A stretch of 32,169 bases of DNA, taken from Deltaproteobacteria bacterium (GTDB taxonomy: Bacteria; Desulfobacterota; Desulfobacteria; Desulfobacterales; JAUVGT01). The notes under the pieces were generated by a model. It did not search any database and was not told the DNA's origin. It saw only the letters and a program-made list of their open reading frames with translations. This document shows, piece by piece, positions 5,702 to 23,889 of the stretch. The DNA is taken from contig JAUVGT010000002.1 in NCBI GenBank assembly GCA_030593645.1, forward strand, positions 1-32,169, written 5' to 3'. Every line of letters starts with the position of its first letter. Within the stretch, counting starts at the first letter, position 1. The translations under genes and the position numbers were made by a program.

Positions 5702-5794
5702 AGTTTCACCTTTCAGTATGTATCAACCTGGATATGTTCGCATGATGGAAAGTATTAAAACACGAACTGCGAAAATAATTTAAAACCGTTTCAA

Positions 5795-6907: not shown

Positions 6908-7032
6908 TTTTCTTCCTCCCATGCAAAATTTCTAATTTAAATGTATCGATGAAATGATAAAAATATACTTTAAAACTGTCTTTTTACATCGCTTTCATTT
7001 ATCAGCAATCGTCATATAACCCCTCGTTTAGT

Positions 7033-7048
7033 AGCAATATCCATGCCA
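7033..7048 (-). promoter_or_regulatory. sigma54 (-24/-12) promoter for ald
   Basis: Minus strand reads TGGCATGGATATTGCT, matching TGGCAC-N5-TTGCW with exact spacing, ~125 bp upstream of ald and next to a sigma54 activator gene. Confidence 0.85.
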
Positions 7049-7316
7049 TCGATACACCTCCATGATAATTAATAGTTTATCGGGAGATGCATTAAAAGAT
7101 TTGATTCATTTTTATATTTATTTACAGATAGTTATAGAATTTACCCATTGATAGTGACTAAAGTAAATCGATGGTTTAACGCATGATAGAGGGGTTACTG
7201 AAGGAAGGGAATGGGTGATATCTGGCAAGAAAACAAACCACTATATCATTCATTTGAGACGTATCCGGTTGATTATAAAATAAATATTGCCAATGGTACG
7301 TTTTATTACCACCGGT

Positions 7317-8906
7317 TCATTTTGTTTCCGGTGGAATATCGTACTTTTTAATCTTATTTAATAGAGCTGTATGAGAAATTCCCAATGTTTTTGAGGCTTT
7401 TCGAATACTTGCTGAGATTTTCAAGGTATCGGTAATAATTCTTCGCTCAAGATCATTTACAAGCGATTTGAGAGACTGCCCTTTATCTCCGGACAAATAA
7501 CGCCGGTTTTTCATATTTTTTATGTTTTTTCCAATTTCAAAGCTGAAAAGGATATGCTCAACCTCAACCTTGCTCGAATCACAGAGAATGGCCGCCCGTT
7601 CAATGACGTTTTTCAGTTCCCTGATATTGCCGGGCCAATCATGGCTGTATAATTTATTTAATGATTCCCGGGTCACCGCCTGAAGATCTTTTTTTAACTG
7701 TGATGCCAGTTGGAAAAGGAAATGCTCAACCAGCAGCGGAATATCATCTTTTCTCTCTTTTAACGGAGGAATATGTATGGGAAGAACATTGATTCGATAG
7801 TACAGATCCTGCCGAAAACTTTTCTCCTCTACCATTCGTTCCAGGTTCCTGTTTGTGGCGGTAAGAATACGGACATCAATGGAAATTTCTTTCTCTCCGC
7901 CAAGCCTTCGGACCCGTTTTTCCTGGATCAGTCTCAATATTTTTACCTGGGGTCCCGGCGGCATTTCAGCGATTTCGTCCAGAAATACCGTGCCGTTTTT
8001 CGCAAGCTCAAACAGACCGGGTTTACCTCCCTTTCGGGCTCCGGTGAAAGCCCCCTCCATATAACCGAACAGCTCACTCTCGAGTAATGATTCCGGCAGG
8101 GCCGCGCAGTTGATCGGCACAAAAGACCCTGTACGGCCGCTGGCTGTATGTATGGTGCGGGCAAACAACTCTTTACCGGTCCCGCTTTCACCCCGAACCG
8201 ATACGATTGAACCGGTATCGGCAATTTTTTGGGCAAAGGATATGGCCGCTTTAATGGCCGGTGTTTTACCAATGATATCACTGAATGTAATCTGGCTGGG
8301 CTCGGAAATAGATTGGGCCAGCATCTTGATTTCCTGCATATCTCTGCCGATCTCCACGGCACCCACAATACGCTTTGAAGAATCATATATGGGTCTTCCC
8401 GTGGCAAAAAACTGGAAACGTCCCTTTTCGTTGATGATATTCTTCTTTACATTGCTGAATTTTTTCCCGTTCAAACAATCCAGTATATCAAAATCAGGCA
8501 GATTGAGCTCTTTAATGTCCCGACCAATGGCTTCTTTTCGGTTTCGGCTGAAAATCCTGCCGGCAACCCGGTTAATCGTCGTGATCCTCCCGTTTTTATC
8601 TATGGAAATCACACCATCGCTCACATTGTCCAGCACCACACGGGACCTGTTTTCCCTCTCTTCCCTGGGAAGGGTTTTAATAAAACGGATCTCCGAAAGA
8701 CCGGAAATTTTCCCAAGAATCTCAAATACTTCTTCCCGGTTTATTTCTGCATTTTCTTTTTCAGCCTCAAGATATACATCTGCCATATCCGCCGTTCTCT
8801 CCACTTCCATGGAAATGATATTAAGATTTTTCTCGGCGATAAGAGAGGAAATGTCCGCGACAATCCCAAGACGATCATTAAACAGCAATCGCAGTTTGAT
8901 ATTCAA
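7317..8906 (-). CDS. sigma54-dependent transcriptional activator with TyrR-like ACT-PAS-AAA+-HTH architecture
   Basis: ACT (NDRLGIVADIS), PAS (LDNVSDGVISIDKNG), GESGTGKE, intact GAFTGA, FLDEI, WPGNIREL, TyrR-type HTH (SIRKASKTLGISHTALLNK). Confidence 0.93.
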   Translation of the reverse strand: MNIKLRLLFNDRLGIVADISSLIAEKNLNIISMEVERTADMADVYLEAEKENAEINREEVFEILGKISGLSEIRFIKTLPREERENRSRVVLDNVSDGVISIDKNGRITTINRVAGRIFSRNRKEAIGRDIKELNLPDFDILDCLNGKKFSNVKKNIINEKGRFQFFATGRPIYDSSKRIVGAVEIGRDMQEIKMLAQSISEPSQITFSDIIGKTPAIKAAISFAQKIADTGSIVSVRGESGTGKELFARTIHTASGRTGSFVPINCAALPESLLESELFGYMEGAFTGARKGGKPGLFELAKNGTVFLDEIAEMPPGPQVKILRLIQEKRVRRLGGEKEISIDVRILTATNRNLERMVEEKSFRQDLYYRINVLPIHIPPLKERKDDIPLLVEHFLFQLASQLKKDLQAVTRESLNKLYSHDWPGNIRELKNVIERAAILCDSSKVEVEHILFSFEIGKNIKNMKNRRYLSGDKGQSLKSLVNDLERRIITDTLKISASIRKASKTLGISHTALLNKIKKYDIPPETK

Positions 8907-8944
8907 TGTTATACACCTTAAGGTAGATTACACTTGATTATTTC

Positions 8945-11047
8945 TTACACCTTGAACTTGCCGACCATTTCTTTTAAGCGCGCCGCCAGTTCAGATAAAT
9001 CTTTTGAACTCTTACTTAAATTGGTACCGCTTTTTGATATTTCATTGGCCGAAATATTTACATCGGAAATATCCTGGGCGATTTCACCGGCAACCGCGGA
9101 GCTTTGAACCACATTCTCACTGACTTCCTGTATCCCGGTCGACGCCTGGGATACATTATCTGCGATTTCTCTCGTGGTAACAGCCTGTTCTTCAACAGCT
9201 GCAGCAATCGTTGACACAATATCATTGATATCATTAATGATGCTGGTGATCTGCTCAATCTCCTTTACGGTTCTGATAGTCGATTCACGGTTGGTACTTA
9301 TTTTTCCCTTAATTTCCTGGGTGGCGGCCGCAGTTTGTGTCGCGAGTTCCTTTATTTCGCTGGCAACTACCGCAAATCCCTTACCCGCGTCACCGGCCCG
9401 AGCCGCTTCAATCGTGGCATTTAACGCAAGCAGGTTGGTCTGTTCGGAAATCTCGGTGATGGTCTCAGTAACCATACCGATTTCATGGGCTGCCCGACCA
9501 AGCTCTTCCACCATATCCGAAACACTTCGGGCCTGGACAACCGCCTGACCGGTAATATTTCGCGCTTTTTCTGAATTCTGAGCAATTTCATTAACAGAAG
9601 ACGTGATCTGCTCAGCCGCGGTTGCAACAAGGTTCACATTTGTTGCCGCCTGTTCCATGGCCGCGGAAACAGAAATGATACTTGTGCTCATTTCCCCGGC
9701 TGACGCGGTAACCACATTGGATATTGAGGACATATCATCAACAACCTTTGACATCTGACCTGAAAGTGCTGAAAGATTTCCGGAAGAAGATTCCAGTTCA
9801 TCAGCATTTCCCATGATATTTTTAATAATCGTCTGGAGCTTCTCAATAAAAATATTAAACCATTTGGCAAGTTCCCCGATTTCGCCCTTACCCGCTATAT
9901 CCAGTCTCATCGTAAGATCGCCTTCCCCTTCCGCGATATTTTTTAGGCCGGTCACAACTTCTGATATTGGTTTGAACATGGATTTTGAGAAAAAGAATAC
10001 AGCCGCAAAGGCGATCAAAACAAAAAGAAATGCCATGATAGTTAACAGAACAATCAACTGATATGTATTAATCTGGGTTTTCTCATATGAGGATAGAAGT
10101 ACGATTGCACCGATTATTTGAGAATTTTCTTCAACAGGAAAAATGACCCTGGCAAAATCTTTCCCGCCAATTGTAACTTCATCAAAGAACTCATTCGAGT
10201 CCGTTGATTTTGTATTTGTTTTCAAATCCTGAAACGCCGCAATATTGAAAAAATCAAACTCTTCCAGGGTACCTATTCCGGATCCTGTTTTTGAAAAAAT
10301 ATTAACCTCTGTCCCGGATAGCCTGGATATTCTATCTGCAAAGTCCTTTCTGATTATTTGTTTTACTGTCAGCATTCCCACGACCTGATTTTCCCGTTTC
10401 TTTTTATCAATATCAAAAACCTCAGTAATGGATGGAACCCGTGTAACAATTCTGATACTTTTTTCATCCGGTTCAAACCCGTCAGATTCTCTGCTGTATA
10501 CCTTGGCGGTCATTATGAGTTGTTCAAAAGGCAATGTTTCAACGATTTTATAAGATTCTTCTTTTATTTCATCCCCTGTTTTAATGACTGCAAATAAAAA
10601 GACATCTTTTTCATCGTCTTTAAATGGAAAGCCCATTTGAGTTTTTTCACCCTCAATATTCACGAACACAATCAGCTTCCCGTTAGCGTCATGAACAATC
10701 GCCTGGTAAAATTTGTGTACCAGCATCACCTTATACAGATCTTCAATCATGCTTTGATGGGTATACCGGGCCATCTGGTAACCATCCGGGCGTCCCTCGT
10801 AGGAACTAATCAATCTTAAATCCCGGCCGATTTCCCCATTCAGGATCATCTGTTTTGAATCATTAATGCTTTTATTTTTTATATTTTCCAATTCATAGTG
10901 AACAATTGTTAAAGCCCTTTTTAAAGAATCAGATGTGATCAATTTGTTTTGCTTATGGACAGTCAGTGATACAATGACGATTGACCCAACGATTATCATT
11001 ATGACAAGCCCCAATGCGCCAATGATAAGCCTGTTTTTGAATGTCAT
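8945..11047 (-). CDS. Methyl-accepting chemotaxis protein (2 TM, large periplasmic sensor, HAMP, signalling domain)
   Basis: [37 protein letters not shown] hairpin tip; HAMP (GEGDLTMRL...[10 protein letters not shown]). Confidence 0.96.
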
Positions 11048-11102
11048 ACGTTGCTGTTCCTTTCAAATATCTGAAGCGGTAAGAGATTGATTTCTAATTA
11101 TA

Positions 11103-11131
11103 ATTTTACTCAAAAACCACCGACATGTCAA
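11103..11131 (-). promoter_or_regulatory. sigma70-type promoter for the MCP gene
   Basis: Minus strand TTGACA (11131-11126), 17 bp spacer, TAAAAT (11108-11103). Confidence 0.65.
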
Positions 11132-11200
11132 GAAATCAGGATGAACTGAAAACAAGTCCCGTATAATAATTCCCATCATTCGATCAGTCAGTTTTTTTTA

Positions 11201-11230
11201 TTGACATGGATGGGAAAAAAAGTTTATGAT
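11201..11230 (+). promoter_or_regulatory. sigma70-type promoter for tetR and probably the acyl-CoA cluster
   Basis: TTGACA (11201-11206), 18 bp spacer, TATGAT (11225-11230). Confidence 0.65.
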
Positions 11231-11231
11231 C

Positions 11232-11247
11232 TCCATCATTTGATGGA
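11232..11247. promoter_or_regulatory. Candidate TetR operator
   Basis: Perfect palindrome TCCATCA-TT-TGATGGA immediately after the -10 box; degenerate second copy CCATCATTCGATC at ~11173-11185. Confidence 0.6.
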
Positions 11248-11271
11248 AACAAACACTGGAAATGGTATAAC

Positions 11272-11901
11272 ATGGCGACACCGCTGGAAAAAGCCCGTAA
11301 AGCCCCGAATTCGATGAAAGCCAAAATCCTGAAGAAAGCCCGTCGGGTATTTGGTGAGTACGGCTTTCACGGAACCACCACACGAATGATCGCACAGGAA
11401 GTGGGCATCGATATTTCAACCCTGTATTATCACTGGGGTGAAAAGGGAGACCTGTATGAATCTGTCATTGTAGATATTAATGAAGATCTACGACAAAAAC
11501 TGGTTGAGGTTGAGGGTATTATTCATGGCCGGCCCCTTCCGGATCGAATGGATATTGCCATAGATTTGATGACTGATTTTCTTTTCAGACACCCTGAAAT
11601 TTCAAACCTGGTCCTTTTTCAATACTTCGGGAAAACCCGAGGTAAAAAATTAATTAATGTTGAAATTCCCGAATTTGTTTCAGGTATTGCACGGTCCATG
11701 GAGTTGTGTCGGTCGACGGATGATGTTCCCGGCCGTGTCCGCCTTCAGGTCCTGGCAATTATGAATTCAATTCACAGTTTTATCTCAGGCGAACACTTTT
11801 TCCGCAAAATGGTTGAACTGGAAAAAAACGACTACATGGCCGAGGTTAAAAAAACGTTAAAATTCATTTTGATCCCCGCCTTTACAGGGAAGAACAAATA
11901 G
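11272..11901 (+). CDS. TetR/AcrR family transcriptional regulator
   Basis: ILKKARRVFGEYGFHGTTTRMIAQEVGIDISTLYYHWGEKGDLY HTH; 209 aa. Confidence 0.95.
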   Translation: MATPLEKARKAPNSMKAKILKKARRVFGEYGFHGTTTRMIAQEVGIDISTLYYHWGEKGDLYESVIVDINEDLRQKLVEVEGIIHGRPLPDRMDIAIDLMTDFLFRHPEISNLVLFQYFGKTRGKKLINVEIPEFVSGIARSMELCRSTDDVPGRVRLQVLAIMNSIHSFISGEHFFRKMVELEKNDYMAEVKKTLKFILIPAFTGKNK

Positions 11902-12012
11902 AAAATGAACATTGAATGAGGAAAAGCTTGGCTTTGTCTTTTTTATATGGATGTTGAATTAAACCCAAATAAATGTGATTTCAAAACTTTCAAGAAGGTG
12001 CAGACCAAGAAA

Positions 12013-12109
12013 AATTATGAGTTTTGAGTTTCAAGTTATGAATGAACGGACAATAAATCAATTTAAATGCTTCAACTTAAAACTAATAATTTATAACTCA
12101 AAACTTAAA
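12013..12109. repeat. Inverted pair of 7-bp-period repeat arrays
   Basis: Left arm TTATGAG TTTTGAG TTTCAAG TTATGAA; right arm ...TTAAAAC TAATAAT TTATAAC TCAAAAC. A related arm occurs at 19941-19979. Confidence 0.6.
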
Positions 12110-12123
12110 CCGGAGGTTTACAA

Positions 12124-14253
12124 ATGACCCTCAACCTGAACGCCATTGGGAAAAAAATCGGCCCGCTGGTTAAAGAATACACATGGAAAGACCCGGTTCT
12201 TTATGCCCTGGGTGTGGGTGCGGGCTTTGATGACCTTGAATATGTCTGGGAAGACGGTCTCAAGGTCATACCGAGTTTTTCCATCGCCAGTATCTTCGAT
12301 TTTCTGGCTGAAACAGCCATAAAGGCAGAAGTGGATCTTTCAGGTATTCTTCACGGGGAACAGGATATAATTTTTCACAACCCCATTCCGCCTGAGGGGA
12401 CACTCACAACAGAAGGCCGGCTTACCGATATCTATGATAAGGGGAAAGACAAAGGCGCCATTGTAATCGCCGAGGCCAACACCTTCCATTTAAACGGTCA
12501 AAAACTCTACACAAATATATTCAAGCTGTTTTGCCGCAAAGACGGCGGTTTCGGCGGCGACCCCGGTCCAAAGGAAACAATAAAAATTCCGGATCGAGAA
12601 CCCGATTATACGGAAAATGCCGTCCCCACCAAAAATCAGCCATTACTCTACAGACTCTCAGGGGATATATTCGCCCTTCATATCGACACCGAATACGCGA
12701 AACAAAGCGGTTTTGAAAGACCAATCATGCACGGACTCTGCACACACGGTTATGCCTGCCGGGCTGTAATCAAACATCTATTCCCGGGAAATCCCGAGCG
12801 TATGAACCGTTTCAGGGTTCGCTTTTCAAAAACGGTTTATCCGGGCACACCCATAAAGACCCAAATTTGGAAAACCGGTGAAAATGAAGCTGTCTTTCGC
12901 ACGATCAATGCGGAAACCCAGGATGTCATCCTCGATCTGGGGAAGGTGGAATGGCTCAGCAGCGGTGAACAGGCGCGAAGAAAAAAACTCGGAGATATAA
13001 ACTTTGACGGGAAAGTCGCAGTGATTACAGGCGCTGGTGCGGGTCTTGGAAAAGCCTATGCCCTGGAACTTTCCAGACGGGGGGCCAAAGTACTGATCAA
13101 CGACCTTGGCGGCGCGCCGGATGGTACAGGATCTTCTTCCTCTGCCGCGGACCTTGCTGTAAAGGAGATTAAAAACACGGGAGGAGAAGCTTCTGCCAGT
13201 TATGATTCCGTGGCCACACCCGAAGGCGGCAGGGCCGTCATTGACAAGGCTGTTAAACTCTGGGGCAGGGTCGACATACTGATTAACAATGCAGGTATTT
13301 TAAGAGACCGGACGCTGGCAAAAATGGAACCCGATACATGGAAGTCTGTAATGGATGTACACCTGAACGGAGCATTTCACGTCACAAAACCGGCATATGT
13401 AAAGATGAAAGAGCAGGGTTACGGCCGCATCGTGTTTACCACATCCGCGGCCGGACTCTACGGCAATTTCGGTCAGTCCAATTATTCATCAGCCAAAATG
13501 GGGCTTATCGGATTAATGAACAGTATTAAAATCGAAGGTGAAAATGCCGGTATTAAGGTGAATACCATTGCCCCGATCGCCGGCACACGGCTCACCAGGG
13601 AAGTCATTCCGCCGGACCTTTTTGAAAAGCTCAAACCCGAGTTCGTGGTACCGATCGTACTGTACCTGTGCTCGGAGCTATGTCCGGTATCGGGAAATGT
13701 TTATAACGCGGGGATGGGATATTTTAATCGGGCAGCCGTGGTTACCGGACCCGGTGCCGTGATCGGTGATGGTCAAACCCCGCCGACTCCTGAAGAGATT
13801 GCTTTAAAAATGGCATCCATCAAATCAATGGATCCGCCCAAAGAATACTTCAATGCCACGTCCGCCCTGTCACCAATGCTGGATGCCTTTAATCCTGAAA
13901 GTATCGATGCGGGTGAAACTGCCGGATGCCCTGAAATCACTGTGGCTGCTATTTTTGAAAAAATGCCGGATGCCTTCCAGCCCGATGCCGCAAAAGGTGT
14001 GGATGCAATATTCCAGTATACCATCAGCGGCCCCAATGGCGGAGAGTGGTATTCTGTAATCAGTAAAGAGAATTGTACGGTTGATCAGGGTAAACATGAA
14101 AACCCCACGACGACCATCAAGATGAACGATGATGATTTTCTGGCATTGATGGGAGGCAAGCTCAACCCCATGACAGCTTATACCAGCGGCAAGCTGAAAA
14201 TTGAGGGCGACATAATAAAATCTCAACTGATTGATAAACTATTTAAGTTCTAG
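12124..14253 (+). CDS. Fusion: (R)-specific enoyl-CoA hydratase 2 (double hot-dog/MaoC) + SDR 3-hydroxyacyl-CoA dehydrogenase + SCP2; MFE-2/HSD17B4-like with permuted domain order
   Basis: LYALGVG, LHGEQ, YRLSGDIFALHID...HGLCTHG (hydratase 2); TGAGAGLG, NDLGG, INNAGILRD, GNFGQSNYSSAK (SDR); QYTISGPNGGEW...LNPMTAYTSGKLKIEGD (SCP2). GGAGG RBS. Confidence 0.92.
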   Translation: MTLNLNAIGKKIGPLVKEYTWKDPVLYALGVGAGFDDLEYVWEDGLKVIPSFSIASIFDFLAETAIKAEVDLSGILHGEQDIIFHNPIPPEGTLTTEGRLTDIYDKGKDKGAIVIAEANTFHLNGQKLYTNIFKLFCRKDGGFGGDPGPKETIKIPDREPDYTENAVPTKNQPLLYRLSGDIFALHIDTEYAKQSGFERPIMHGLCTHGYACRAVIKHLFPGNPERMNRFRVRFSKTVYPGTPIKTQIWKTGENEAVFRTINAETQDVILDLGKVEWLSSGEQARRKKLGDINFDGKVAVITGAGAGLGKAYALELSRRGAKVLINDLGGAPDGTGSSSSAADLAVKEIKNTGGEASASYDSVATPEGGRAVIDKAVKLWGRVDILINNAGILRDRTLAKMEPDTWKSVMDVHLNGAFHVTKPAYVKMKEQGYGRIVFTTSAAGLYGNFGQSNYSSAKMGLIGLMNSIKIEGENAGIKVNTIAPIAGTRLTREVIPPDLFEKLKPEFVVPIVLYLCSELCPVSGNVYNAGMGYFNRAAVVTGPGAVIGDGQTPPTPEEIALKMASIKSMDPPKEYFNATSALSPMLDAFNPESIDAGETAGCPEITVAAIFEKMPDAFQPDAAKGVDAIFQYTISGPNGGEWYSVISKENCTVDQGKHENPTTTIKMNDDDFLALMGGKLNPMTAYTSGKLKIEGDIIKSQLIDKLFKF
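13003..14253 (+). repeat. SDR-SCP2 module, paralogous copy 1
   Basis: Collinear with 15770-17023 (1251 vs 1254 bp); both start FDGKVAVITGAGAGLGKAYA and end KSQLIDKLFKF. Confidence 0.9.
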
Positions 14254-14284
14254 AAGTGGATTTATTACAAGGGAGAGTATATCC

Positions 14285-17023
14285 ATGATCGGAATCACAT
14301 CATACGGCGCACATATACCAAAACTCAGGTTAAACCGAATGAGTATTGTAGAAAACATGGGCTGGTTTGCCCCGGCGATTGTAATGGTTGCCCAGGGAGA
14401 GCGTTCCTATTGTAACTGGGACGAAGACAGCCTCACCATGGCCGTTGCCGCGGCAACGGACTGTCTAAAAAATATGGACAAACAATCAGTTGACTCCATA
14501 TTTCTCTGCTCAACAACACTGCCCTTTAACGACCGCCTTAACGCGGGTATTCTTAAAACCGCCCTGAACCTTCATGACCAGGTGTCTGCCGCAGACATCA
14601 CATCTTCTGTTCGTGCCGGTACCATCGGTCTTGTGCAGGCGCTTGAGGTAGTGAAAAACCGGGGAAAAAAACAGGCCCTGGTAGCCGCCACCGATAAACG
14701 AAAAGCCAAAACCGCTTACTTTTATGAAATGTGGTTTGGTGACGGCGCTGCCGCGGTCCTTACCGGACGGGACAATGTCATCGCGGAATATTTGGGTTCT
14801 TATACGGTGACCCATGATTTTGTTGACCATTACCGTGGATCTGACAGCGATTTCGATTACATGTGGGAAGAACGATGGACCCGTGACCAGGGTTACTCAA
14901 ACATTATTCCGGAAGCGGTCAACGGTCTTTTTAACACACTTTCAATGACCATGGATGATGTTGACCATTTTGCCTTTCCCTGTTTTTTTGCTGCCGAACA
15001 CAGCAAAATCGCTGCCAAACTGGGCGCCTCCCCTGAAAAAATCATCAACAATATGCATGATGTGTGCGGTGAAACCGGTGCCGCGCATCCCCTGATGATG
15101 TTAATCACAGCACTGGAAAAAGCATCCCCCGGCGACACAATACTTGCCGCGGGCTTTGGCCAGGGAAGCGACGCGCTGCTCTTTAAAGTAACAGATGCCA
15201 TTAAAGATCTGCCTGAACGAAACGGTGTATCCGGGTGCCTTAAAAACGGTAAAACGGTTTCAAGCTATACAAAATTCCTCAAGTTCCGTGATCTTATTGA
15301 TACAGAAATGGGTATCCGGGCAGAAGCTCCCACCCAGACGGCCATGACCGTGCTCTGGCGAAAACGCGATATGCTCCTGGGCATGGTCGGAGGCCGCTGC
15401 ACTGATTGCGGTACTCCCCAGTTCCCCAAAGCAGATATCTGTATTAACCCTGCCTGTAGAAAAAAAGATACTCAACAGCCCTATGAATTCGCGGATAAAC
15501 CTGCATATGTAAAAAGTTTCACAGGGGATCTTCTGGCCGTATCGGTTGATCCGCCTGCAATATACGGTATGGTGGAATTTGAAGACGGCGGCCGGTACAT
15601 GGCAGATTTTACGGATTGTGAGATGGATGATGTCGCTGTGGGGCAGCCTGTAACCCTTAGCTTCAGAAAGCGCTACGTTGACCGGGAACGCGGGTTCAGC
15701 GGCTATTTCTGGAAAGCGATCCCTGAACCGGGACAAACCGAATCACCGGAATCCGATCAAACCATAAGATTTGACGGCAAGGTGGCTGTGATTACAGGTG
15801 CCGGCGCGGGCCTGGGCAAAGCATACGCCATAGAGCTTTCCAGGCGGGGAGCCAAAGTGCTTGTAAACGACCTCGGCGGATCGACGGATGGAACCGGATC
15901 TTCTTCCAGTTCCGCGGATCTGGTTGTAAAAGAAATCACGGACGCGGGCGGAGAAGCCGCGGCCAATCACGAATCCGTGTCCACACCCGAAGGCGGCAGG
16001 GCAATTATTGATCAGGCTGTTAAGCTCTGGGGCCGGGTCGATATATTGATTAACAATGCGGGTATATTAAGAGACAAAACCCTGGCAAAAATGGAACCGG
16101 ACATGTGGCAGCCTGTTATGGATGTACATCTCAACGGCGCATACCATGTGACACGGCCGGCTTTTATAAAAATGAGGGAACAGGGTTACGGTCGCATCGT
16201 CCTAACCACTTCCGCAGCCGGGCTTTACGGTAATTTCGGGCAAACCAACTACTCATCTGCCAAACTGGGCCTGGTCGGTTTTATGAACACACTTAGAATC
16301 GAAGGTGAAAAAGCAGGGATAAAAATCAACACCATTGCCCCGATCGCGGGGACAAGGCTGACCCGGGATATCATTCCGCCGGATCTTTTTGAAAAGCTCA
16401 GTCCCGAATTTGTAACACCCATGGTCATCTATCTTTGCTCTGAAAAATGCACGGAAACAGGTATTATCGTTAACGCGGGCGGGGGATATTTTAACAGGGC
16501 GGCGATCAGTACCGGTTCCGGCATCGCTGTGGGTGACGGCAAAAAACCGCCTGAACTTGAAGAAATACATCGCAAATGGGAAGACATTAATGATCTCTCA
16601 GACATCAGGGAATATGACGATGTAACAAGTTCTTTGAATCCCATGCTTGAGGCTTTCAATCCTGACAATGAAAAAAAAGCTGGAGTTAAAAATGATTCAT
16701 CAAAACCGACCGTACAAAACATATTCGACAAAATGACTGACATGTTTCAGGAGGAAGCAGCAGAAGGCATCGACGTGGTCTTTCAGTATAACATCAGCGG
16801 TCCCGGAGGCGGAGAATGGTATTCTGTTATTAAAAATCAAACGTGTACCATTCAGGAAGGCACACATGAAACCCCGGATACGGTTATAAAGATGAATGAT
16901 GAAGACTTCATCTCCCTGATGTCAGGCGGTCTTAATCCGATAACCGCCTATACCAGCGGAAAACTGAAAATTGAGGGGGACATCATGAAGTCACAGCTTA
17001 TTGATAAGTTATTTAAATTCTGA
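14285..17023 (+). CDS. Four-part fusion: HMG-CoA-synthase-like thiolase fold (catalytic Cys apparently absent) + DUF35 Zn-ribbon/OB fold + SDR + SCP2
   Basis: MIGITSYGAHIP, WDEDSLTMA, DITSSVRAGT, GDGAAA, GETGAAHP, GFGQGSDA; CTDC-x10-CINPAC and OB fold ending GYFWKAIP; SDR (TGAGAGLG, NNAG, YSSAK); SCP2. Start moved to ATG 14285 after a GGGAGAG RBS. Confidence 0.9.
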   Translation: MIGITSYGAHIPKLRLNRMSIVENMGWFAPAIVMVAQGERSYCNWDEDSLTMAVAAATDCLKNMDKQSVDSIFLCSTTLPFNDRLNAGILKTALNLHDQVSAADITSSVRAGTIGLVQALEVVKNRGKKQALVAATDKRKAKTAYFYEMWFGDGAAAVLTGRDNVIAEYLGSYTVTHDFVDHYRGSDSDFDYMWEERWTRDQGYSNIIPEAVNGLFNTLSMTMDDVDHFAFPCFFAAEHSKIAAKLGASPEKIINNMHDVCGETGAAHPLMMLITALEKASPGDTILAAGFGQGSDALLFKVTDAIKDLPERNGVSGCLKNGKTVSSYTKFLKFRDLIDTEMGIRAEAPTQTAMTVLWRKRDMLLGMVGGRCTDCGTPQFPKADICINPACRKKDTQQPYEFADKPAYVKSFTGDLLAVSVDPPAIYGMVEFEDGGRYMADFTDCEMDDVAVGQPVTLSFRKRYVDRERGFSGYFWKAIPEPGQTESPESDQTIRFDGKVAVITGAGAGLGKAYAIELSRRGAKVLVNDLGGSTDGTGSSSSSADLVVKEITDAGGEAAANHESVSTPEGGRAIIDQAVKLWGRVDILINNAGILRDKTLAKMEPDMWQPVMDVHLNGAYHVTRPAFIKMREQGYGRIVLTTSAAGLYGNFGQTNYSSAKLGLVGFMNTLRIEGEKAGIKINTIAPIAGTRLTRDIIPPDLFEKLSPEFVTPMVIYLCSEKCTETGIIVNAGGGYFNRAAISTGSGIAVGDGKKPPELEEIHRKWEDINDLSDIREYDDVTSSLNPMLEAFNPDNEKKAGVKNDSSKPTVQNIFDKMTDMFQEEAAEGIDVVFQYNISGPGGGEWYSVIKNQTCTIQEGTHETPDTVIKMNDEDFISLMSGGLNPITAYTSGKLKIEGDIMKSQLIDKLFKF
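15770..17023 (+). repeat. SDR-SCP2 module, paralogous copy 2
   Basis: Collinear with 13003-14253; many differences fall at synonymous positions. Confidence 0.9.
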
Positions 17024-17038
17024 AAGATTTAAATAACA

Positions 17039-17143
17039 AAGGGTTCGAGGGGTCAAGGGTTCGAGTATTATTTCCCCGGCGGGGCGATGCATTACTTCCC
17101 GCATTTCACTTGAACCCTTGGCCCCTTGAATCCTTGAACCCTT
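17039..17143. repeat. Intergenic inverted repeat built from 8-bp units (REP-like hairpin)
   Basis: AAGGGTTCGAGGGGTCAAGGGTTCGAGT (17039-17066) pairs with ACTTGAACCCTTGGCCCCTTGAATCCTT (17108-17135), followed by one extra unit; small CCCC-GGC-GGGG hairpin in the loop. Confidence 0.75.
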
Positions 17144-17209
17144 ACATCTCAAACTCTTTAAGGCGGTAAACAAGGGATTTTCAAATACACAAATTTCCCG
17201 GAGGAAAAT

Positions 17210-18418
17210 ATGACTGACGGTATCAGAGACAAAGTGGCAATCATCGGAATGGGCTGCTCCCGATTTGGCGAACGATGGGACATGGGTGCCGAAGAATTGA
17301 TCGTGGAAGCATTTACGGAATGCGTCGAAGACGCCGGGATCGATCAAAAAGAAATACAGGCGGCCTGGGTGGGTAACTGCTTTGAAGAAGTCAGCCTGGG
17401 CAAAAGCGCCCTGGGTGCGGCCATGGCCCTTCGCCTTGACTATGTTCCGTTCACCCGTGTGGAAAATTACTGCGCCAGCGGTACGGAATCATTCAGGGGC
17501 GCGGTTTACGCGGTCGCTTCCGGTGCCTATGATACCTGTCTCGCGATTGGGGTTGAAAAACTTAAGGATACCGGGTATGGCGGTCTTCCCAACCCCGGCT
17601 CAAATATGGGACCCCTTAACTGGCTCTGGTATCCCAATATCTCCGCGCCCGGTGCATTCGCCCAGCTTGCCACAGCCTATGCTGCCAAATATGGTATTAA
17701 AGATCAGGATCTTAAACGGGCCATTGCGCACGTTTCTGTTAAAAGCCATGAAAACGGTTTAAACAACCCCAAAGCCCATCTCAGAAAAAAAGTGACAATT
17801 GATCAGGTTATGGCATCCCCGATCATTGCTCACCCGCTCGGCCTTTTTGACTGCTGCGGTGTGAGCGACGGTGCGGCCTGCGCGATCGTGACAACAGTAC
17901 AAAAAGCCAGGGAGCTTGGCATTAAAAACCCGGTCACCGTAAAAGCCCTCCAATTGGCCTTAAGTAACGGGGAAGAAATGTCATTCAATGACTGGGACGG
18001 CACTTATTTTCCCACCACATCAAAGGCAAGTAAAAAAGCATATCAAGAAGCAGGAATCACAGACCCAAAAGAAGAAATTTCAATGATGGAGCTGCACGAT
18101 TGTTTCTCAATCACAGAGCTTGTGACCTACGAAGATCTTCACATATCCGAGCGGGGTCATGCATGGCAGGATACACTGGATGGAATGTACAACCGTGATG
18201 GAAAAATTCCGGCACAGATTGACGGGGGCCTCAAATGTTTTGGCCATCCCATCGGGGCTTCGGGACTTCGCATGCTGTATGAAATGTATCTGCAGTTAAA
18301 CGGCCGGGCGCAGGACCGGCAGCTTGAAAACCCGCGTTTCGGTCTCACCCACAATCTTGGCGGAGTTCCATTTATGAGCGTGGCCAGTATCGCTATTGTG
18401 GGACTGTATAAAACATAA
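17210..18418 (+). CDS. Thiolase, SCP2/SCPx type (acetyl-CoA acyltransferase)
   Basis: Fingerprints ENYCASG, ELHDCF, GHPIGASG and HNLGG; GGAGG RBS. Confidence 0.93.
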   Translation: MTDGIRDKVAIIGMGCSRFGERWDMGAEELIVEAFTECVEDAGIDQKEIQAAWVGNCFEEVSLGKSALGAAMALRLDYVPFTRVENYCASGTESFRGAVYAVASGAYDTCLAIGVEKLKDTGYGGLPNPGSNMGPLNWLWYPNISAPGAFAQLATAYAAKYGIKDQDLKRAIAHVSVKSHENGLNNPKAHLRKKVTIDQVMASPIIAHPLGLFDCCGVSDGAACAIVTTVQKARELGIKNPVTVKALQLALSNGEEMSFNDWDGTYFPTTSKASKKAYQEAGITDPKEEISMMELHDCFSITELVTYEDLHISERGHAWQDTLDGMYNRDGKIPAQIDGGLKCFGHPIGASGLRMLYEMYLQLNGRAQDRQLENPRFGLTHNLGGVPFMSVASIAIVGLYKT

Positions 18419-18450
18419 ACAAAACCGAATTCAGCAAGGCTGCATGAACA

Positions 18451-19593
18451 ATGGAAATACTAAAATATTCAGCAGAACATGATTCATTCCGCGAAACGTT
18501 AAGGAAATTCCTGGGAAAAGAAGTGGTTCCTTTCGCGGATCAATGGGAACAGGAAGGTATTGTGCCTCGTGAAGCCTGGAAAAAGGCCGGGGAACAGGGA
18601 TTTTTATGCACGAGTGTTCCGGAAAAATATGGCGGGGCCGGAGCTGATTTTTTGTATTCCATAATCGTGATCGAAGAAATGATACATACCCGTCAATTCG
18701 GTCTGCTCACTCCCCTTCACAGTGATATAATTGTTCCGTACATTACATCCTATGCTTCTGAAGAATTAAAGCAAAAATACCTTCCCGGCTGTATTTCAGG
18801 AGATATTATTACTGCTGTGGGTATGACCGAACCGGGTGCGGGGAGCGATCTCACTTCCATATCGACCACCGCGACCAGGGCGGGGGATGAAGTCATTATA
18901 AACGGTCAAAAAACCTTTATCAGCTGCGGGATCAATTGTGATCTGGTCATCGTCGCGGCAAAGGATCCGGATATCGACGATCCTTATAACGCCCTTGATT
19001 TATACCTGGTGGATGCTTCCACACCGGGTTTTAAAAAGGGAAACAAACTGGATAAAATGGGATGGCGCAGTCAGGATACCGCGGAGCTGTTTTTTTCAGA
19101 CTGCCGCATACCCGTCACAAACCGGCTGGGACAAAAAGGGGGCGGTTTTCTGATGCTCATGGATAAACTCCAGCCCGAACGGCTGGTTTGTACTGTGGGT
19201 GCCCTGACCGCGGCTGAAATTATGATCGATTTAACAATCGATTTTTGTAAAAACCATAATGAATCAGGAAAACCACTTTCCAAGTACCAGGCAACCCAGC
19301 ATAAAATAATTGATATGCTCACAGAAATAAAACTGGGCCGCACATTTACAGACAAACTGATCGCGGATCATATTGAGGGGATTAAAGTACCCATCGAAGT
19401 CTCCATGGCAAAGGCATGGGTCACCGATATGGCCAAACGTGTGGCCGACGGGTGCATGGATTTGTTCGGTAATTACGGATATTATGAAGAATATCCGATT
19501 GCCCGCTTCTGGCGCGACATTCGCGTGATGTCCATTTTTGCCGGTACCAATGAAATTATGAAGGGCATTGCGGCTAAATTTATGGGGCTATAA
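18451..19593 (+). CDS. Acyl-CoA dehydrogenase (LCAD/IVD-type catalytic base position)
   Basis: GMTEPGAGSDL, INGQKTFIS, KMGWRSQDTAELFF, LQPERL, and IFAGTNEIMK with no Glu at the MCAD-376-equivalent site. Confidence 0.95.
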   Translation: MEILKYSAEHDSFRETLRKFLGKEVVPFADQWEQEGIVPREAWKKAGEQGFLCTSVPEKYGGAGADFLYSIIVIEEMIHTRQFGLLTPLHSDIIVPYITSYASEELKQKYLPGCISGDIITAVGMTEPGAGSDLTSISTTATRAGDEVIINGQKTFISCGINCDLVIVAAKDPDIDDPYNALDLYLVDASTPGFKKGNKLDKMGWRSQDTAELFFSDCRIPVTNRLGQKGGGFLMLMDKLQPERLVCTVGALTAAEIMIDLTIDFCKNHNESGKPLSKYQATQHKIIDMLTEIKLGRTFTDKLIADHIEGIKVPIEVSMAKAWVTDMAKRVADGCMDLFGNYGYYEEYPIARFWRDIRVMSIFAGTNEIMKGIAAKFMGL

Positions 19594-19612
19594 TAACGTG
19601 CTCAATCGAAAT

Positions 19613-19639
19613 TCGGGGTCGGTATCGGTATCGCAATCG
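19613..19639. repeat. 6-bp-period tandem repeat (TCGNNN)n
   Basis: TCGGGG TCGGTA TCGGTA TCGCAA TCG. Confidence 0.55.
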
Positions 19640-19651
19640 TCTTTTTTTAGT

Positions 19652-19676
19652 GTAGGGGTGCCTCTTGCGGGTACCC
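19652..19676 (+). repeat. GTAG-type REP element
   Basis: GTAG tetranucleotide directly followed by the hairpin GGGTGCC-TCTTGCG-GGTACCC (one G-T pair). Confidence 0.6.
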
Positions 19677-19940
19677 AGTAATGAGCGTTGAACACTTGTC
19701 AGGCCATAACCTCGGCGACGGCTGATCGAATAATGATGCCGCTTTGCTCTATCTTATTTAAATCAGGCAGTATTCCTAAGATTTTCAATCAATCGGGTAA
19801 TGATTTATTGAATTTTTTAGTATTTAGCAGTACAAGCGTTTAAGGTGTTTTTTAAACCTTGCCTCCAGAGTGGAAATTATGAATATTGAGTGATAAATTA
19901 TCGTTTCAAGGATTAAATTCGATTTAGAATTTAGGGTTCC

Positions 19941-19979
19941 TTCAACTCAAAATTCAGAATTATTAACTCAAAACTCAAT
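19941..19979. repeat. 7-bp-period repeat arm related to 12071-12109
   Basis: TTCAACTCAAAATTCAGAATTATTAACTCAAAACTCAAT matches 12071-12109 at 31 of 39 positions by manual count; a degenerate left arm lies near 19876-19891. Confidence 0.55.
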
Positions 19980-20050
19980 CGCACGCGCGATTGCCAGGGG
20001 GGTCTGCGGTCCGTAACGTTTTATTAACTCAAATACAGGAAAATACTGCA

Positions 20051-21748
20051 ATGGAAATCTATGACAGCAAGCCATGGCTAAAGTCCTATGATCCAGGTGT
20101 CGAAACCAGTCTTCATATTCCGGATGAACCGGTAACTGCCGGTTATGAAAGGATCAGAAAACGTTTCCCGGACAGACCGGCCTTCCATTTTCATGGGGTA
20201 ATGTGGACATTTGAAAAAATGTTTAATGCCGCTGATCGTTTTGCCCGGGCGCTGTCGGACCGGGATATCGGTAAAAATGATGTCGTGGCCATTAATTTAC
20301 CGAATCTTCCCCAATATCTTATCGCCCAGCTGGGTGCGACAAAAATGGGCTGCTGGATAACCGGAATTTCCCCACTTCTCCTGGCCGATGAAATGGCATT
20401 CCAGCTCAAAGATTCCGGTGCAAAAGCTCTTGTCACACTGGATCCAATTTATGAACATCGCCTTTTACCGGTTATTGACCAATTACCGGAACTTAAATTT
20501 ATCGTTTCCACGGGTATCCTCGATTTTTTACCCAGGTTTAAACAAATCATGGCCGCACTGCTGAAAAAGGTTCCAACCGGTAATGTAAAACCCATACCCG
20601 GCAAAGATGTGATCAAATTTATGCCGCTTCTAAAAAAACATGAACCGAATCCGCCCCGGGTAGATATCCACGCGGATGATATTCACCTCCTCCAGTACAC
20701 CGGCGGCACCACAGGTACTCCAAAAGGCGCCATGCTGACCCACCGCAACATTCTGAGTCAGGCTTTATTCTGGAATACCTGGTTTGATATGAATATAGGC
20801 ACGGATGTTTCATGTTCAGGTTATCCATATTTCCATATCGGCGGTCAATGCTCTTTTGTTGCAACCATATGGCTCGGCGCAACACAGATATTAATACCCA
20901 ATCCCCGGGATACCAAACATATTGTTAAAGAAATTGCCAGGTACAAACCTCATTTTATAAATAATGTGCCGTCACTTTACATGCTTCTTTTAGATACTCC
21001 CGGTTTTAAAGATCTTGACTTTTCATCGGTCCGCTTTGCCACCGCCGCCGCCGCTCCGTATCCTGTTGAGCCCTTAAAAAAGCTTGAGTCCGTGATCGGA
21101 GCCGATAAGGTGGTGGAACTCTATGGGCTGACTGAAACGTCCCCCCTTGTGACCATGAATCCGGTTAAGGGAACAAAAAAAACAGGAAGCGTGGGTATTC
21201 CCGTTCCGAATACTGAAATCAGACTCGTGGATATCCTCACCGGTGATACCCAGGTACCCCAGGGTGAAAAGGGGGAACTGATCGTACGCGGTCCCCAGAT
21301 TATGAAAGGTTACTGGAACAAACCTGAAGAAACAGCGAATGCAATGCGTCAGCATGACGGTAAAACCTGGCTTCATACCGGCGATATTGCCGTTATGGAC
21401 TCTGACGGTTATATCAGTATCGTAGACCGTTCCAAAGACATGATAAACGTCAGCGGATTCAAGGTTTTCCCACGTGAAGTTGAAGAAAAACTCTACAACC
21501 ACCCCGCAGTCAAAGTATGCGCGGTGGTCGGTGTCGATGATCCGGATCGGCCCGGAAGTGAGATGGTCAAACTGATCGTCCAGATGAGCGATGACTGGAA
21601 AGATAAATCCGAAACAGAAATAATTGATGAAATCAACACCTTTTGCAGGGAGAAACTCGGTGCACATAAAAAACCGAAACTGATCGAAATTATCGATGAA
21701 ATACCGATGACTGCAGCCGGTAAGGTTGACCGCAAAGTACTTCGGTGA
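20051..21748 (+). CDS. Long-chain-fatty-acid--CoA ligase (FadD-like AMP-forming ligase)
   Basis: QYTGGTTGTPKG, YGLTETSP, GPQIMKGYW, WLHTGDI, DRSKDMI, GKVDRK. Start moved to ATG 20051 (MEIYDSKPWLKSY). Confidence 0.95.
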   Translation: MEIYDSKPWLKSYDPGVETSLHIPDEPVTAGYERIRKRFPDRPAFHFHGVMWTFEKMFNAADRFARALSDRDIGKNDVVAINLPNLPQYLIAQLGATKMGCWITGISPLLLADEMAFQLKDSGAKALVTLDPIYEHRLLPVIDQLPELKFIVSTGILDFLPRFKQIMAALLKKVPTGNVKPIPGKDVIKFMPLLKKHEPNPPRVDIHADDIHLLQYTGGTTGTPKGAMLTHRNILSQALFWNTWFDMNIGTDVSCSGYPYFHIGGQCSFVATIWLGATQILIPNPRDTKHIVKEIARYKPHFINNVPSLYMLLLDTPGFKDLDFSSVRFATAAAAPYPVEPLKKLESVIGADKVVELYGLTETSPLVTMNPVKGTKKTGSVGIPVPNTEIRLVDILTGDTQVPQGEKGELIVRGPQIMKGYWNKPEETANAMRQHDGKTWLHTGDIAVMDSDGYISIVDRSKDMINVSGFKVFPREVEEKLYNHPAVKVCAVVGVDDPDRPGSEMVKLIVQMSDDWKDKSETEIIDEINTFCREKLGAHKKPKLIEIIDEIPMTAAGKVDRKVLR

Positions 21749-21758
21749 TGAGGCGCAT

Positions 21759-23867: not shown

Positions 23868-23889
23868 AAAAAATTAAAAAAAGGAAACC

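Follow-up and report, generated by a model that had tools for sequence, protein, structure and literature searches.

A stretch of 32,169 nucleotides (nt) from an uncultured member of the Desulfobacterota (assembly GCA_030593645.1, contig JAUVGT010000002.1, positions 1 to 32,169 of the forward strand), referred to here as the window, carries an operon in which two large multidomain genes, called A and B, are followed by a thiolase gene (Table 1). Gene A combines a hydratase 2 with a short-chain dehydrogenase/reductase (SDR) of the type found in the peroxisomal multifunctional enzyme MFE-2 and with an SCP2 domain, and gene B, which starts 31 nt after the stop codon of A, joins a second SDR-SCP2 module to a domain resembling HMG-CoA synthase (HMGS-like) and to a DUF35 domain. 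No specific name is given to A or B by any source checked. An earlier note, made from the letters of this DNA, had read the domains in the same way and had noticed that the two adjacent genes end in a common module. The domain reading is borne out by Pfam and by the nearest solved structures, and the module is confirmed by BLASTP, in which A 292-709 and B 512-930 share 297 of 419 positions (71% identity; 354 of 419 positives, one gap, E = 0); its length, put at about 416 amino acids (aa) in the note, is corrected to 419 aa.

Domain architecture and predicted activities

The Pfam domains that exceed their curated cut-offs are, in gene A, MFE-2_hydrat-2_N (residues 18-138), MaoC (155-267), adh_short (297-484) and SCP2 (615-708) and, in gene B, ACP_syn_III_C (238-313), OB_ChsH2_C (437-479), adh_short (517-704) and SCP2 (841-929). 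NCBIfam places the HMGS-like region of B at residues 19-357, and a zf-ChsH2 match at 386-412 lies slightly below its cut-off (22.8 against 23.2 bits). The most probable start of gene B is the ATG at 14285 and not the TTG that opens the reading frame, because a copy of the gene in the database (P0005, 912 aa, 100% identical) begins at M19 and the fetched relatives open with MIGITSYG or MVGITSYG. The thiolase gene consists of Thiolase_N and Thiolase_C_1.

Table 1. Features of the operon and of its immediate surroundings, with positions in the window.
Feature	Position	Strand	Size, content or basis
Gene A	12124-14253	+	709 aa; hydratase 2, MFE-2-type SDR, SCP2
A, hydratase 2 part (double hot-dog, MFE-2 type)	12124-12993	+	Pfam and PDB matches
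A, MFE-2-type SDR core (A 291-515)	12994-13668	+	PDB matches, kept motifs
A, SDR C-terminal extension, A-specific (A 516-600)	13669-13923	+	holds both patches that discriminate A from B
A, SCP2 lipid-binding domain and stop codon	13924-14253	+	Pfam SCP2 67.6 bits (cut-off 21.3)
Gene B	14285-17023 (open reading frame from 14231)	+	HMGS-like, DUF35, SDR, SCP2
B, HMGS-like domain, putative dead pseudo-enzyme scaffold	14285-15301	+	PDB matches, tetrad lost
B, DUF35 (zinc ribbon and OB fold), predicted thiolase-docking part	15314-15709	+	Pfam, PDB, complex model
B, MFE-2-type SDR core	15761-16435	+	PDB 1gz6_A 6.8e-85, kept motifs
B, SDR C-terminal extension, B-specific, canonical MFE-2-like	16436-16693 (bounds approximate)	+	HMMER alignment to 1gz6_A
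B, SCP2 domain and stop codon	16694-17023	+	Pfam SCP2 65.2 bits
Thiolase gene	17210-18418	+	402 aa; DUF35-associated, SCP2-thiolase-like type
Long REP-like hairpin in the B-thiolase spacer	17039-17135	+	folding energy against shuffles
TetR-family regulator	11272-11901	+	Pfam TetR_N 1.2e-14
Acyl-CoA dehydrogenase (ACAD)	18451-19593	+	380 aa; three ACAD Pfam domains
Acyl-CoA synthetase, start codon uncertain	19991-21748	+	Pfam AMP-binding 297.8 bits
FadJ-like enoyl-CoA hydratase/(S)-3-hydroxyacyl-CoA dehydrogenase	21726-23867	+	732 bits, under the cut-off of 869
4Fe-4S dicluster domain protein	23890-25026	+	378 aa; downstream of the operon

The first part of A matches the hydratases of MFE-2. 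The families MFE-2_hydrat-2_N (PF22622) and MaoC (PF01575) reach 83.6 and 86.4 bits (cut-off 27 for both), and 3khp_A (2.7e-48) and 1s9c_A (5.8e-46) are its PDB matches. The motif Y-x-L-S-G-D-x4-H-x5-A, which we take to be the hydratase-2 motif with the catalytic Asp and His, keeps both residues in 67 of 68 orthologues; in those 67 the canonical form G-D-x-N-P-x-H is replaced by G-D-[IVT]-[FL]-x-L-H.

By their sequences, both SDRs belong to the type of the MFE-2 (3R)-hydroxyacyl-CoA dehydrogenases, and (3R) stereospecificity would go with membership of this family; family matches of this kind, with those of the hydratase 2, uphold the MFE-2-like chemistry that had been proposed for the locus. 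The SDR of A is nearest to 1gz6_A and 1zbq_A (~9e-87), the next SDR outside MFE-2 standing at 3.9e-43, and for the SDR of B the match to 1gz6_A (Table 1) is followed by the next SDR at 9e-45. The best PDB match of both modules is the Candida two-SDR enzyme 2et6_A (~1e-125), whose two SDR domains each match each module strongly, and the alignments of both modules to 1gz6_A run at least to chain position 300, taking in the C-terminal extension. Since all 53 A modules and all 53 B modules retain the Gly-rich NAD motif and the Ser-Tyr-Lys residues (one A module has a Gly-to-Ala change), the SDRs on A and B both look active. The Asp of 'NDLGG' is invariant in all 106 modules; an Asp at this position is by rule a pointer to NAD over NADPH, and suggests that the cofactor is NAD. 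A column guessed to hold the fourth catalytic residue of SDRs (Asn) varies between N, K and D in both modules; the guess was probably wrong, and nothing is drawn from it.

The HMGS-like domain of B has as its nearest PDB chains those of PhlA (9skh_A, 9.5e-32; 5m3k_A, 3e-31), and matches HMG-CoA synthase 6esq_I at 1.2e-24. The archaeal catalytic tetrad E82/C114/H238/N270 corresponds to T95/V127/P250/E281 in B (P0002 numbering; alignment counted by hand), and among 80 aligned rows (38 of the fused type, 42 stand-alone) the first three tetrad positions hold not one Glu, Cys or His, respectively. Because these residues are gone from the catalytic positions in 80/80 rows, the domain is predicted to be a catalytically dead scaffold and no HMG-CoA synthase. 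HMG-CoA synthase was considered as a name for B and rejected, all four tetrad positions being replaced and the family scores lying below their cut-offs (NF003274, 195.4 bits against 244; TIGR00748, 121.9 against 353). The DUF35 part is recognized by OB_ChsH2_C (31.3 bits, cut-off 27.1) and by PDB 6esq_E, a chain labelled 'Pfam DUF35' (4.2e-11), and its four zinc-ribbon Cys are kept in 38/38 fused-type rows.

The thiolase scores well above the cut-off of NCBIfam NF004810 (675.7 bits against 403), and its C-terminal domain matches PF22691 at 112.4 bits. Its nearest PDB matches are the acetyl-CoA acetyltransferase chains 7yvy_A (3.7e-59) and 6esq_A (6.5e-57), and BbsB (7pxp_C, 6e-43) comes after them; SCP2-thiolase type 1 is more distant (6hsj_A, 5e-42). 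The entry 6esq also contains HMG-CoA synthase and 'Pfam DUF35' chains. C88, H296-D-C-F299 and G345-H346 are invariant in 39/39 aligned rows. The thiolase had been described as SCPx-type, which holds for the HDCF motif and the Thiolase_C_1 type but not for the fused SCP2 domain, as the protein consists of thiolase domains only and the SCP2 domains are found on A and B.

It is likely that B binds this thiolase, as had been proposed for its HMGS-like and DUF35 parts, and the proposal is backed both by a modelled complex and by homology to a characterized one. When one copy of B 19-510 (alignment of 80 rows) was modelled with one copy of the thiolase (alignment of 39 rows), the score was 0.77, 0.71 and 0.72 (median 0.72, possibly reflecting memory of solved relatives) against 0.00 in three controls, on a calibration whose mark is reached by 58 of 80 solved complexes and by 2 of 110 mismatched pairs. 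The partner had a predicted local distance difference test (pLDDT) value of at least 90, and at least 96% of the contacts were common to the runs. All confident contacts of B lie within DUF35 (query 344-475, equal to P0002 362-493), and on the thiolase side the modelled interface comprises residues 122-159, 205-209, 254-264 and 388. The characterized relative is the PfACAT/HMGS-DUF35 complex of Pseudomonas fluorescens, in which, according to the text of PMC12960953 (Nat Commun 2026), HMGS is joined to DUF35 in one chain and has no tetrad left, and the thiolase keeps Cys, HDxF and GHx; B and the thiolase of the window show every sequence feature of this fused, tetrad-less type. The same text reports that the complex cleaves acetoacetyl-CoA and does not condense acetyl-CoA, and its authors regard it as an evolutionary intermediate that no defined pathway has recruited so far. 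It also counts 1,030 bacterial loci with HMGS, ACAT and DUF35 genes, 1,001 of them without secondary-metabolism neighbours; neither a hydratase nor MaoC is mentioned in the main text of PMC12960953.

Distribution, known relatives and evolution of the module

A scan of one genome per species yielded 270 stretches that encode a relative of the N-terminal half of B, and the best 80 (65-74% identity) were analysed. All 80 loci are titled as metagenome-assembled genomes (MAGs), nearly all with Desulfobacterota labels and a few with others such as Rickettsiales and Myxococcales. Neighbours were listed from high-scoring segment pairs covering at least half of the query and counted only in loci with enough DNA on the relevant side, which gives denominators of 47 to 67 of the 80. 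Gene A lies directly upstream of B in 67/67 related loci, SDR-SCP2 is fused to B in 66/66 and the thiolase lies downstream of B in 58/58, so that the co-conservation of the three genes, a point on which the proposed system could have failed, is complete among the loci counted. A TetR homologue is found upstream of gene A in 49/60 loci and an ACAD homologue downstream in 37/47. A FadJ-like gene, in contrast, is found in none of the 80. The independence from FadAB/FadIJ that the earlier note had attributed to the system cannot be claimed, as the FadJ-like gene of the window lies 3.3 kb downstream. By comparison with the 80 related loci, this genome is the only one in which (S)- and (R)-type enzymes stand side by side.

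Of 400 other, evenly sampled genomes of the phylum, 23 from 11 coded families contain a match, (almost) at full length and within one open frame, to a probe spanning the junction of DUF35 and SDR, and an A-type match mostly lay 2.3-2.9 kb from the junction-probe match. Searched against 1.84 billion representatives, B 19-510 matched 562 proteins at E <= 1e-30, the majority of which are stand-alone HMGS-like-DUF35 fusions of about 470-490 aa. Variants of B include P0133 (800 aa), which has HMGS-like, DUF35 and SDR without SCP2; P0125 (722 aa), in which HMGS-like-DUF35 is followed by two SCP2 domains without an SDR; and P0025 and P0077 (1038-1040 aa), in which the SDR is followed by two tandem SCP2 domains. 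From these architectures, SCP2 and SDR appear to have been gained and lost independently. P0266 (723 aa) is of another kind, its first 375 residues matching the HMGS-like domain of B (37%) and being followed by ATP-grasp and molybdopterin-binding domains; it is either an odd fusion or a chimeric gene call.

The same set of domains also occurs in pieces, in other genomes of the phylum. Five loci were fetched in which the junction probe was matched in two separate halves no more than 3 kb apart, and all five share one gene order: HMGS-like-DUF35 (52-54% identity) is followed by the thiolase (69-71%) and, after a gap of ~0.9 kb, by a stand-alone MFE-2-type SDR (52-58%). Two of these split loci were inspected gene by gene. 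In both, the hydratase is encoded within the gap as two hot-dog halves, each with a gene of its own (149 and 143-144 aa), the set is preceded by a family III CoA-transferase, and no match to an SCP2 domain was found. A half-fused form occurs in two genomes of the window's own order, in which A is as in the window and B lacks SCP2. Judged from these arrangements, the operon of the window is a fused version of one whose parts stand separately elsewhere, and the series from split to fused supports a common function for all five domains.

Two of the related loci depart from the usual arrangement. One contig with a full A-B-thiolase operon carries, in addition, a second stand-alone HMGS-like-DUF35 gene (53%) beside a second thiolase (70%) and without SDR-SCP2 (L009:282-2952, - strand), and plain and fused scaffolds can thus both exist in one genome. 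In another, a 668-aa flavoprotein of the old-yellow-enzyme type (Oxidored_FMN and Pyr_redox_2) stands directly after the thiolase and replaces ACAD (L010:14416-16422, + strand); its likeness to 2,4-dienoyl-CoA reductases hints at unsaturated substrates in that lineage.

Set against known systems, the novelty of the operon lies in its fusions. By description, the P. fluorescens complex shares with the window the tetrad-less HMGS-like domain fused to DUF35 and the adjoining thiolase with Cys, HDxF and GHx, whereas B adds a C-terminal MFE-2 SDR and SCP2 and lies in a beta-oxidation operon with a hydratase-SDR-SCP2 gene. The archaeal complex 6esq has chains that match the thiolase, the HMGS-like domain and DUF35 at 6.5e-57, 1.2e-24 and 4.2e-11, respectively, but that complex has a working HMGS and serves biosynthesis; in the window, the corresponding site is predicted to be dead, DUF35 is fused and the context looks catabolic. 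Peroxisomal MFE-2 (HSD17B4; 1gz6, 1zbq, 1s9c, 3oml) together with SCPx offers the three domain families of A, an HDCF-type thiolase and SDRs matched at ~1e-85 with their extension. It differs in its domain order, SDR-hydratase-SCP2 instead of the hydratase-SDR-SCP2 of A, and the bacterial, cytosolic system has a second SDR-SCP2 on the thiolase scaffold and a thiolase without SCP2. Fox2 carries two specialized SDRs in one chain. It resembles the present pair, as does the Candida tropicalis (3R)-hydroxyacyl-CoA dehydrogenase A+B (2et6), in having two paralogous MFE-2 SDR units; here, however, the SDRs are on two proteins and their cores are homogenized (99-100% identical in 6 of 53 genomes).

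Among complexes built on DUF35, BbsAB/BbsCD (7pxp, 7pcs) likewise has a DUF35 protein holding an SCP2-type HDxF thiolase in a beta-oxidation operon of an anaerobe, but BbsA is without an HMGS-like domain, BbsCD are ordinary SDRs (7pcs_B, 2.2e-25), and there are neither SCP2 domains nor fusions. PhlACB (5m3k, 9skh) includes the nearest solved relative of the HMGS-like domain of B, PhlA (9.5e-32), which is also without the Cys, and in PhlACB, Shy-Sal and ChsH2-Ltp2 alike DUF35 binds a thiolase-fold partner. PhlC, however, has lost HDxF and acylates phloroglucinols, and Sal and Ltp2 are aldolases, whereas the thiolase of the window retains the full set of thiolytic residues. Every domain family is known already, as are the principle of the DUF35 scaffold and the pseudo-HMGS-DUF35/thiolase core, and MFE-2 with SCPx is a functional analogue. 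The statement that no characterized example is known stands for the SDR-SCP2 fusions and fails for that core, which was characterized in 2026. No description of SDR-SCP2 fusions or of an A-type architecture in bacteria was found in open-access full text and bioRxiv, and the supplements of PMC12960953 may show such neighbours. What appears to be new is the pair of fusions, hydratase-SDR-SCP2 and pseudo-HMGS-DUF35-SDR-SCP2, strictly paired in one operon, and with it the split-to-fused series and the mosaic evolution of the duplicated module.

This mosaic was traced in 53 genomes, namely the window and 52 of the 80 loci; in the remaining loci, the module of one gene or the other fell short of 93% coverage. 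All trees come from quick searches under LG+G4. On the tree of the 106 modules, the A/B label needs 16 changes, of which at least 15 are forced by supported branches. The A and B modules of the window are sisters (SH-aLRT 100), and the two are sisters within the genome in 12 of the 53. The median identity of A to B within a genome is 72.4%, as against 68.1% for A to A and 67.5% for B to B between genomes. The segments of the module behave differently. In the SDR core (A 291-515) the median identity is 82% within genomes and 76% between orthologues, with 26 label changes on its own tree, and in SCP2 (A 601-709) the corresponding values are 68%, 63% and 25; for the SDR extension (A 516-600) they are 48%, 50% and 4. 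The cores of A and B are at least 90% identical within 10 of the 53 genomes, and those at 99-100% are L012, L015, L019, L040, L061 and L064. Repeated overwriting of the SDR cores and SCP2 domains is thus indicated, with gene conversion between the tandem copies as its simplest explanation; the 85-residue extension is old and type-specific, and selection would keep it so. A pair of specialized SDRs after the manner of Fox2, which the earlier note had in mind, does not agree with homogenized cores; the extension is the only type-specific segment. In L012 and L064 the whole modules are 98.3% and 99.5% identical, the otherwise type-specific extension included, and this reflects either a very recent conversion of the whole module or a repeat that was collapsed or copied in MAG assembly.

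Quaternary structure, proposed pathway and alternatives

The extension bears on how A and B associate. The two types are told apart by two short patches only, A 519-527 ('QCPV[TS]GxIY' in A, 'xCxETGMIF' in B) and A 559-568 ('VAxx[MIWF]xKIxS' in A, 'IHxxWxAIN[SD]' in B). HMMER aligns B to the rat enzyme 1gz6_A without gaps over positions 210-300, placing the Glu of the first patch on E232 and the Trp of the second on W273. In human MFE-2, as described in the text of PMC3538638, a bond links E232 to W273 of the partner monomer, E232 and the dehydrogenase extension both have a part in dimerization, and every MFE-2 domain dimerizes even when alone. The extension of MFE-2 reaches over to the partner subunit. 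That text supplied 18 MFE-2 positions for contacts, dimerization and substrate binding; at 16 of them A and B have the same consensus, and those that differ are the equivalents of E232 and W273. The pair of Glu or Asp with Trp is present in 46/53 B modules and in 0/53 A modules; at the E232 equivalent, A has Val in 46/53 and has lost the acidic residue in 50/53, and at the W273 equivalent it has Met, Ile, Phe, Leu, Ser or Val in 43/53. Since B conserves both partners of the contact pair, B2, with A2 held by a Val-Met/Ile contact, is the simpler reading. The N-terminal parts agree with it, hydratase 2 and HMGS/PhlA-type domains being homodimerizing folds; PhlA forms A2 units in Phl(A2C2)2B4 according to PMC12960953. 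Homodimers, that is, A2 and B2-thiolase, are thus weakly favoured over an obligate A:B heterodimer.

The heterodimer is the arrangement that the earlier note had advanced: A and B would pair through their SDRs, DUF35 would hold the thiolase, and hydration, dehydrogenation and thiolysis would be found in one particle. A variant of this arrangement would be an A2B2 ring closed by hydratase-hydratase and HMGS-like-HMGS-like contacts. MFE-2 SDRs do dimerize (in the account of PMC3538638), both SDRs of 2et6_A match each module strongly, and A and B are always adjacent (67/67) and here 31 nt apart. Most of the interface would not discriminate between the two, given the 16 of 18 positions alike and the cores that are 99-100% identical in 6/53 genomes, and an asymmetric, obligate heterodimer would likewise be expected to have an extension specific to each type. 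In the split form, moreover, one SDR gene serves both neighbours, while in the fused form there is a copy on each, which fits an SDR dimer as the link. Against this stand the canonical E232-W273' pair intact in B (46/53), best explained by B-B pairing, the loss of the acidic partner in 50/53 and of Trp in 43/53 A modules, and the homodimerizing folds at the two N-termini, whose avidity would favour A2 and B2. We consider the heterodimer unlikely, and weaker than the homodimer reading. Somewhat more doubtful still is its furthest form, a single A2B2-thiolase particle with four SCP2 domains, linked by the SDR dimer, with the 1,001 'orphan' bacterial HMGS/ACAT/DUF35 loci including the thiolase stage of an (R)-specific beta-oxidation, a stage which in Desulfobacterota would have become joined to its dehydrogenase and to a permuted MFE-2. 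If it were true, the particle would be a bacterial counterpart of peroxisomal MFE-2 and SCPx, direct hand-over to thiolysis would pull the unfavourable NAD-linked oxidation in energy-starved anaerobes, and the type-specific extension would encode an asymmetric A:B interface.

The explanation that we favour, with some reserve, is that of a catabolic, MFE-2-like beta-oxidation operon of uncultured Desulfobacterota, under a TetR-family regulator, in which A2 and a B2-thiolase complex work in sequence. In this scheme the acyl-CoA synthetase would activate the acid and the acyl-CoA dehydrogenase would produce the 2-enoyl-CoA, which the hydratase-2 domain of A would hydrate to the (3R)-hydroxyacyl-CoA. 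The NAD-dependent MFE-2-type SDRs of A and B would oxidize the latter, and the thiolase, held by the DUF35 and dead HMGS-like scaffold of B, would cleave the resulting 3-oxoacyl-CoA. Protein A, a permuted bacterial MFE-2, would tie the hydratase to a dehydrogenase and SCP2, and B would tie a dehydrogenase and a lipid-binding SCP2 to the thiolase; the SCP2 domains would hold hydrophobic chains, and the A2 homodimer and the B2-thiolase complex would act one after the other. The presence of a dehydrogenase on the thiolase scaffold may let the favourable thiolysis pull the unfavourable oxidation, as we infer by echo of the coupling logic that the text of PMC12960953 describes for the archaeal thiolase/HMGS/DUF35 complex. 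Because of the SCP2 domains and the peroxisomal analogy, the substrates are probably long, branched or bulky acyl-CoAs. The catabolic route of MFE-2 type as such is held with good confidence, and its stereochemistry and direction would be those expected of the families.

Two other functions can be set beside it. The operon might run in the synthetic direction, as a reverse beta-oxidation or a supply of (R)-3-hydroxyacyl-CoA, e.g. for storage polyesters, with a condensing thiolase and reducing SDRs. MFE-2-type SDRs and MaoC hydratases can work in either direction and with (R) specificity, which is the stereochemistry of polyester precursors, and several carriers are labelled Syntrophales or Syntrophaceae, groups of a type known for reversible pathways; the archaeal thiolase/HMGS/DUF35 relative is also biosynthetic in the account of PMC12960953. 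The characterized tetrad-less relative, on the other hand, cleaved acetoacetyl-CoA and did not condense acetyl-CoA (same text), the invariant Asp of 'NDLGG' (106/106) suggests NAD, and the partners are ACAD (37/47), acyl-CoA synthetases and TetR, with no reductase or polymerase seen among the neighbours, so that a synthetic role is very improbable. A more serious candidate is a dedicated route for side chains or substituted acids, comparable to benzylsuccinate (bbs) or steroid side-chain degradation, in which SCP2 would hold a bulky hydrophobic moiety. The split form opens with a family III CoA-transferase, and an enzyme of that family is used by the bbs system; in peroxisomes, branched substrates and those of the bile-acid type are processed by MFE-2 with SCPx. 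The thiolase matches BbsB (7pxp_C, 6e-43) and the SDRs match BbsD distantly (7pcs_B, 2.2e-25), pairs of DUF35 and thiolase-fold proteins are described among steroid side-chain enzymes (Shy-Sal), and the old-yellow-enzyme-type reductase of L010 follows the thiolase directly. No hydrocarbon- or steroid-activating enzyme, however, was seen beside the operon in the window or the loci inspected, and in the window the acyl-CoA synthetase is of long-chain type and the ACAD, of 380 aa, an ordinary one. A dedicated route is possible, if rather unlikely.

Several points weigh against the catabolic, homodimeric scheme itself. Stereochemistry, direction and substrate are all read from family membership, and the Asn-Pro of the hydratase motif is replaced by Phe (Leu once) and by Ala or Gln (Pro and Leu once each). 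Since like complexes have been solved (6esq, 5m3k, 9skh, 9vbo, 7pxp), the score of the complex model may reflect memory of them, and its one B and one thiolase differ from the real stoichiometry. The relatives all come from MAG contigs, and the trees, being quick searches, have SH-aLRT as their only support values. The homodimer argument depends on one contact pair, located by alignment. In the HMMER alignment of A a 3-residue gap falls at the W273 site, so that the equation of A-563 with W273 relies on the ungapped A/B alignment, and Trp does occur there in 10/53 A modules. The B proteins of L012 and L064 have an extension of the A type, and the interface of these two could not separate A from B, unless they are artefacts of assembly. 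Finally, the V-W and E-M/I contacts of a heterodimer are physically possible.

If the scheme holds, it would provide a pathway context for the thiolase complex that its discoverers placed in no pathway in 2026, because the tetrad-less HMGS-DUF35 is here fused to a beta-oxidation dehydrogenase and always lies beside a hydratase and a thiolase. It would add a prokaryotic, permuted MFE-2 (hydratase-SDR-SCP2), with a split-to-fused series of the same five domains, and enzyme clustering in anaerobic beta-oxidation would become directly testable. The duplicated module would be a clean natural case of mosaic concerted evolution, in which the segment of dimer contact stays distinct, and it bears on how paralogues of a homodimer stay apart or together. 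The carriers are uncultured Desulfobacterota of sediment and subsurface, and the substrates of the route would matter for carbon turnover in anoxic settings.

Regulation, the spacer hairpin and the flanking genes

The TetR-family gene is likely a repressor of the operon, a role assigned from its family and position. Ahead of it, at 11201-11230, lies a sigma-70-like site with 11 of 12 matches. A scan of 11000-25200 for promoters and terminators gave 29 promoter-like sites, where 22.6 would be expected, and 12 terminator-like sites, where 17.3 would be, from which nothing is concluded beyond the good site ahead of the TetR gene; none of the terminator-like sites on the + strand falls in a gap between operon genes. 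A search of 11000-12200 for a TetR operator palindrome found only two short AT-rich repeats, both inside the TetR gene, and no operator is proposed. Further downstream, the ACAD falls under every NCBIfam equivalog cut-off, and the best NCBIfam matches of the acyl-CoA synthetase are long-chain fatty-acid-CoA ligases, each below its own cut-off; homologues of this synthetase (50-54% identity) come after ACAD in several related loci, e.g. L009, L018, L036 and L048.

The spacer between B and the thiolase gene contains a long hairpin with a 28-bp stem and a folding energy of -58.5 kcal/mol (200 shuffles, z = -7.6). Its building block is a CTTGAACCC-type motif, and all four copies of the arm motif in the window lie within it; the motif is found in 0 of 93 other loci and in three further places in the window's own genome (C30, C104 and C327). 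An Rfam scan of 11000-20500 gave one sub-threshold match on the hairpin, to an animal microRNA family (28.5 against 90 bits), which was taken as chance. No RNA run carrying the locus is listed among the sequencing runs searched. Run X1 contains 0.99 of the words sampled and may be the source of the sequence, so that its habitat label is no independent evidence; X2 and X3 belong to the same study. Pieces of the hairpin are abundant in DNA and RNA contigs of runs X1-X3, and the RNA runs X2 and X3 hold short pieces only, mostly 90-95% alike and mostly on the repeated hairpin, and give no evidence of expression either way. The hairpin resembles a repetitive extragenic palindromic (REP) element and may affect the relative expression of B and the thiolase.

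Outside the operon, the - strand encodes, in window 1-11047, a DUF58 protein, a MoxR-type AAA ATPase, an alanine dehydrogenase, a sigma-54 activator with ACT and PAS domains and a methyl-accepting chemotaxis protein and, in 25081-29130, an amino-acid permease fused to TrkA domains and an HSP90/GHKL-type ATPase; both flanks look unrelated to the operon.

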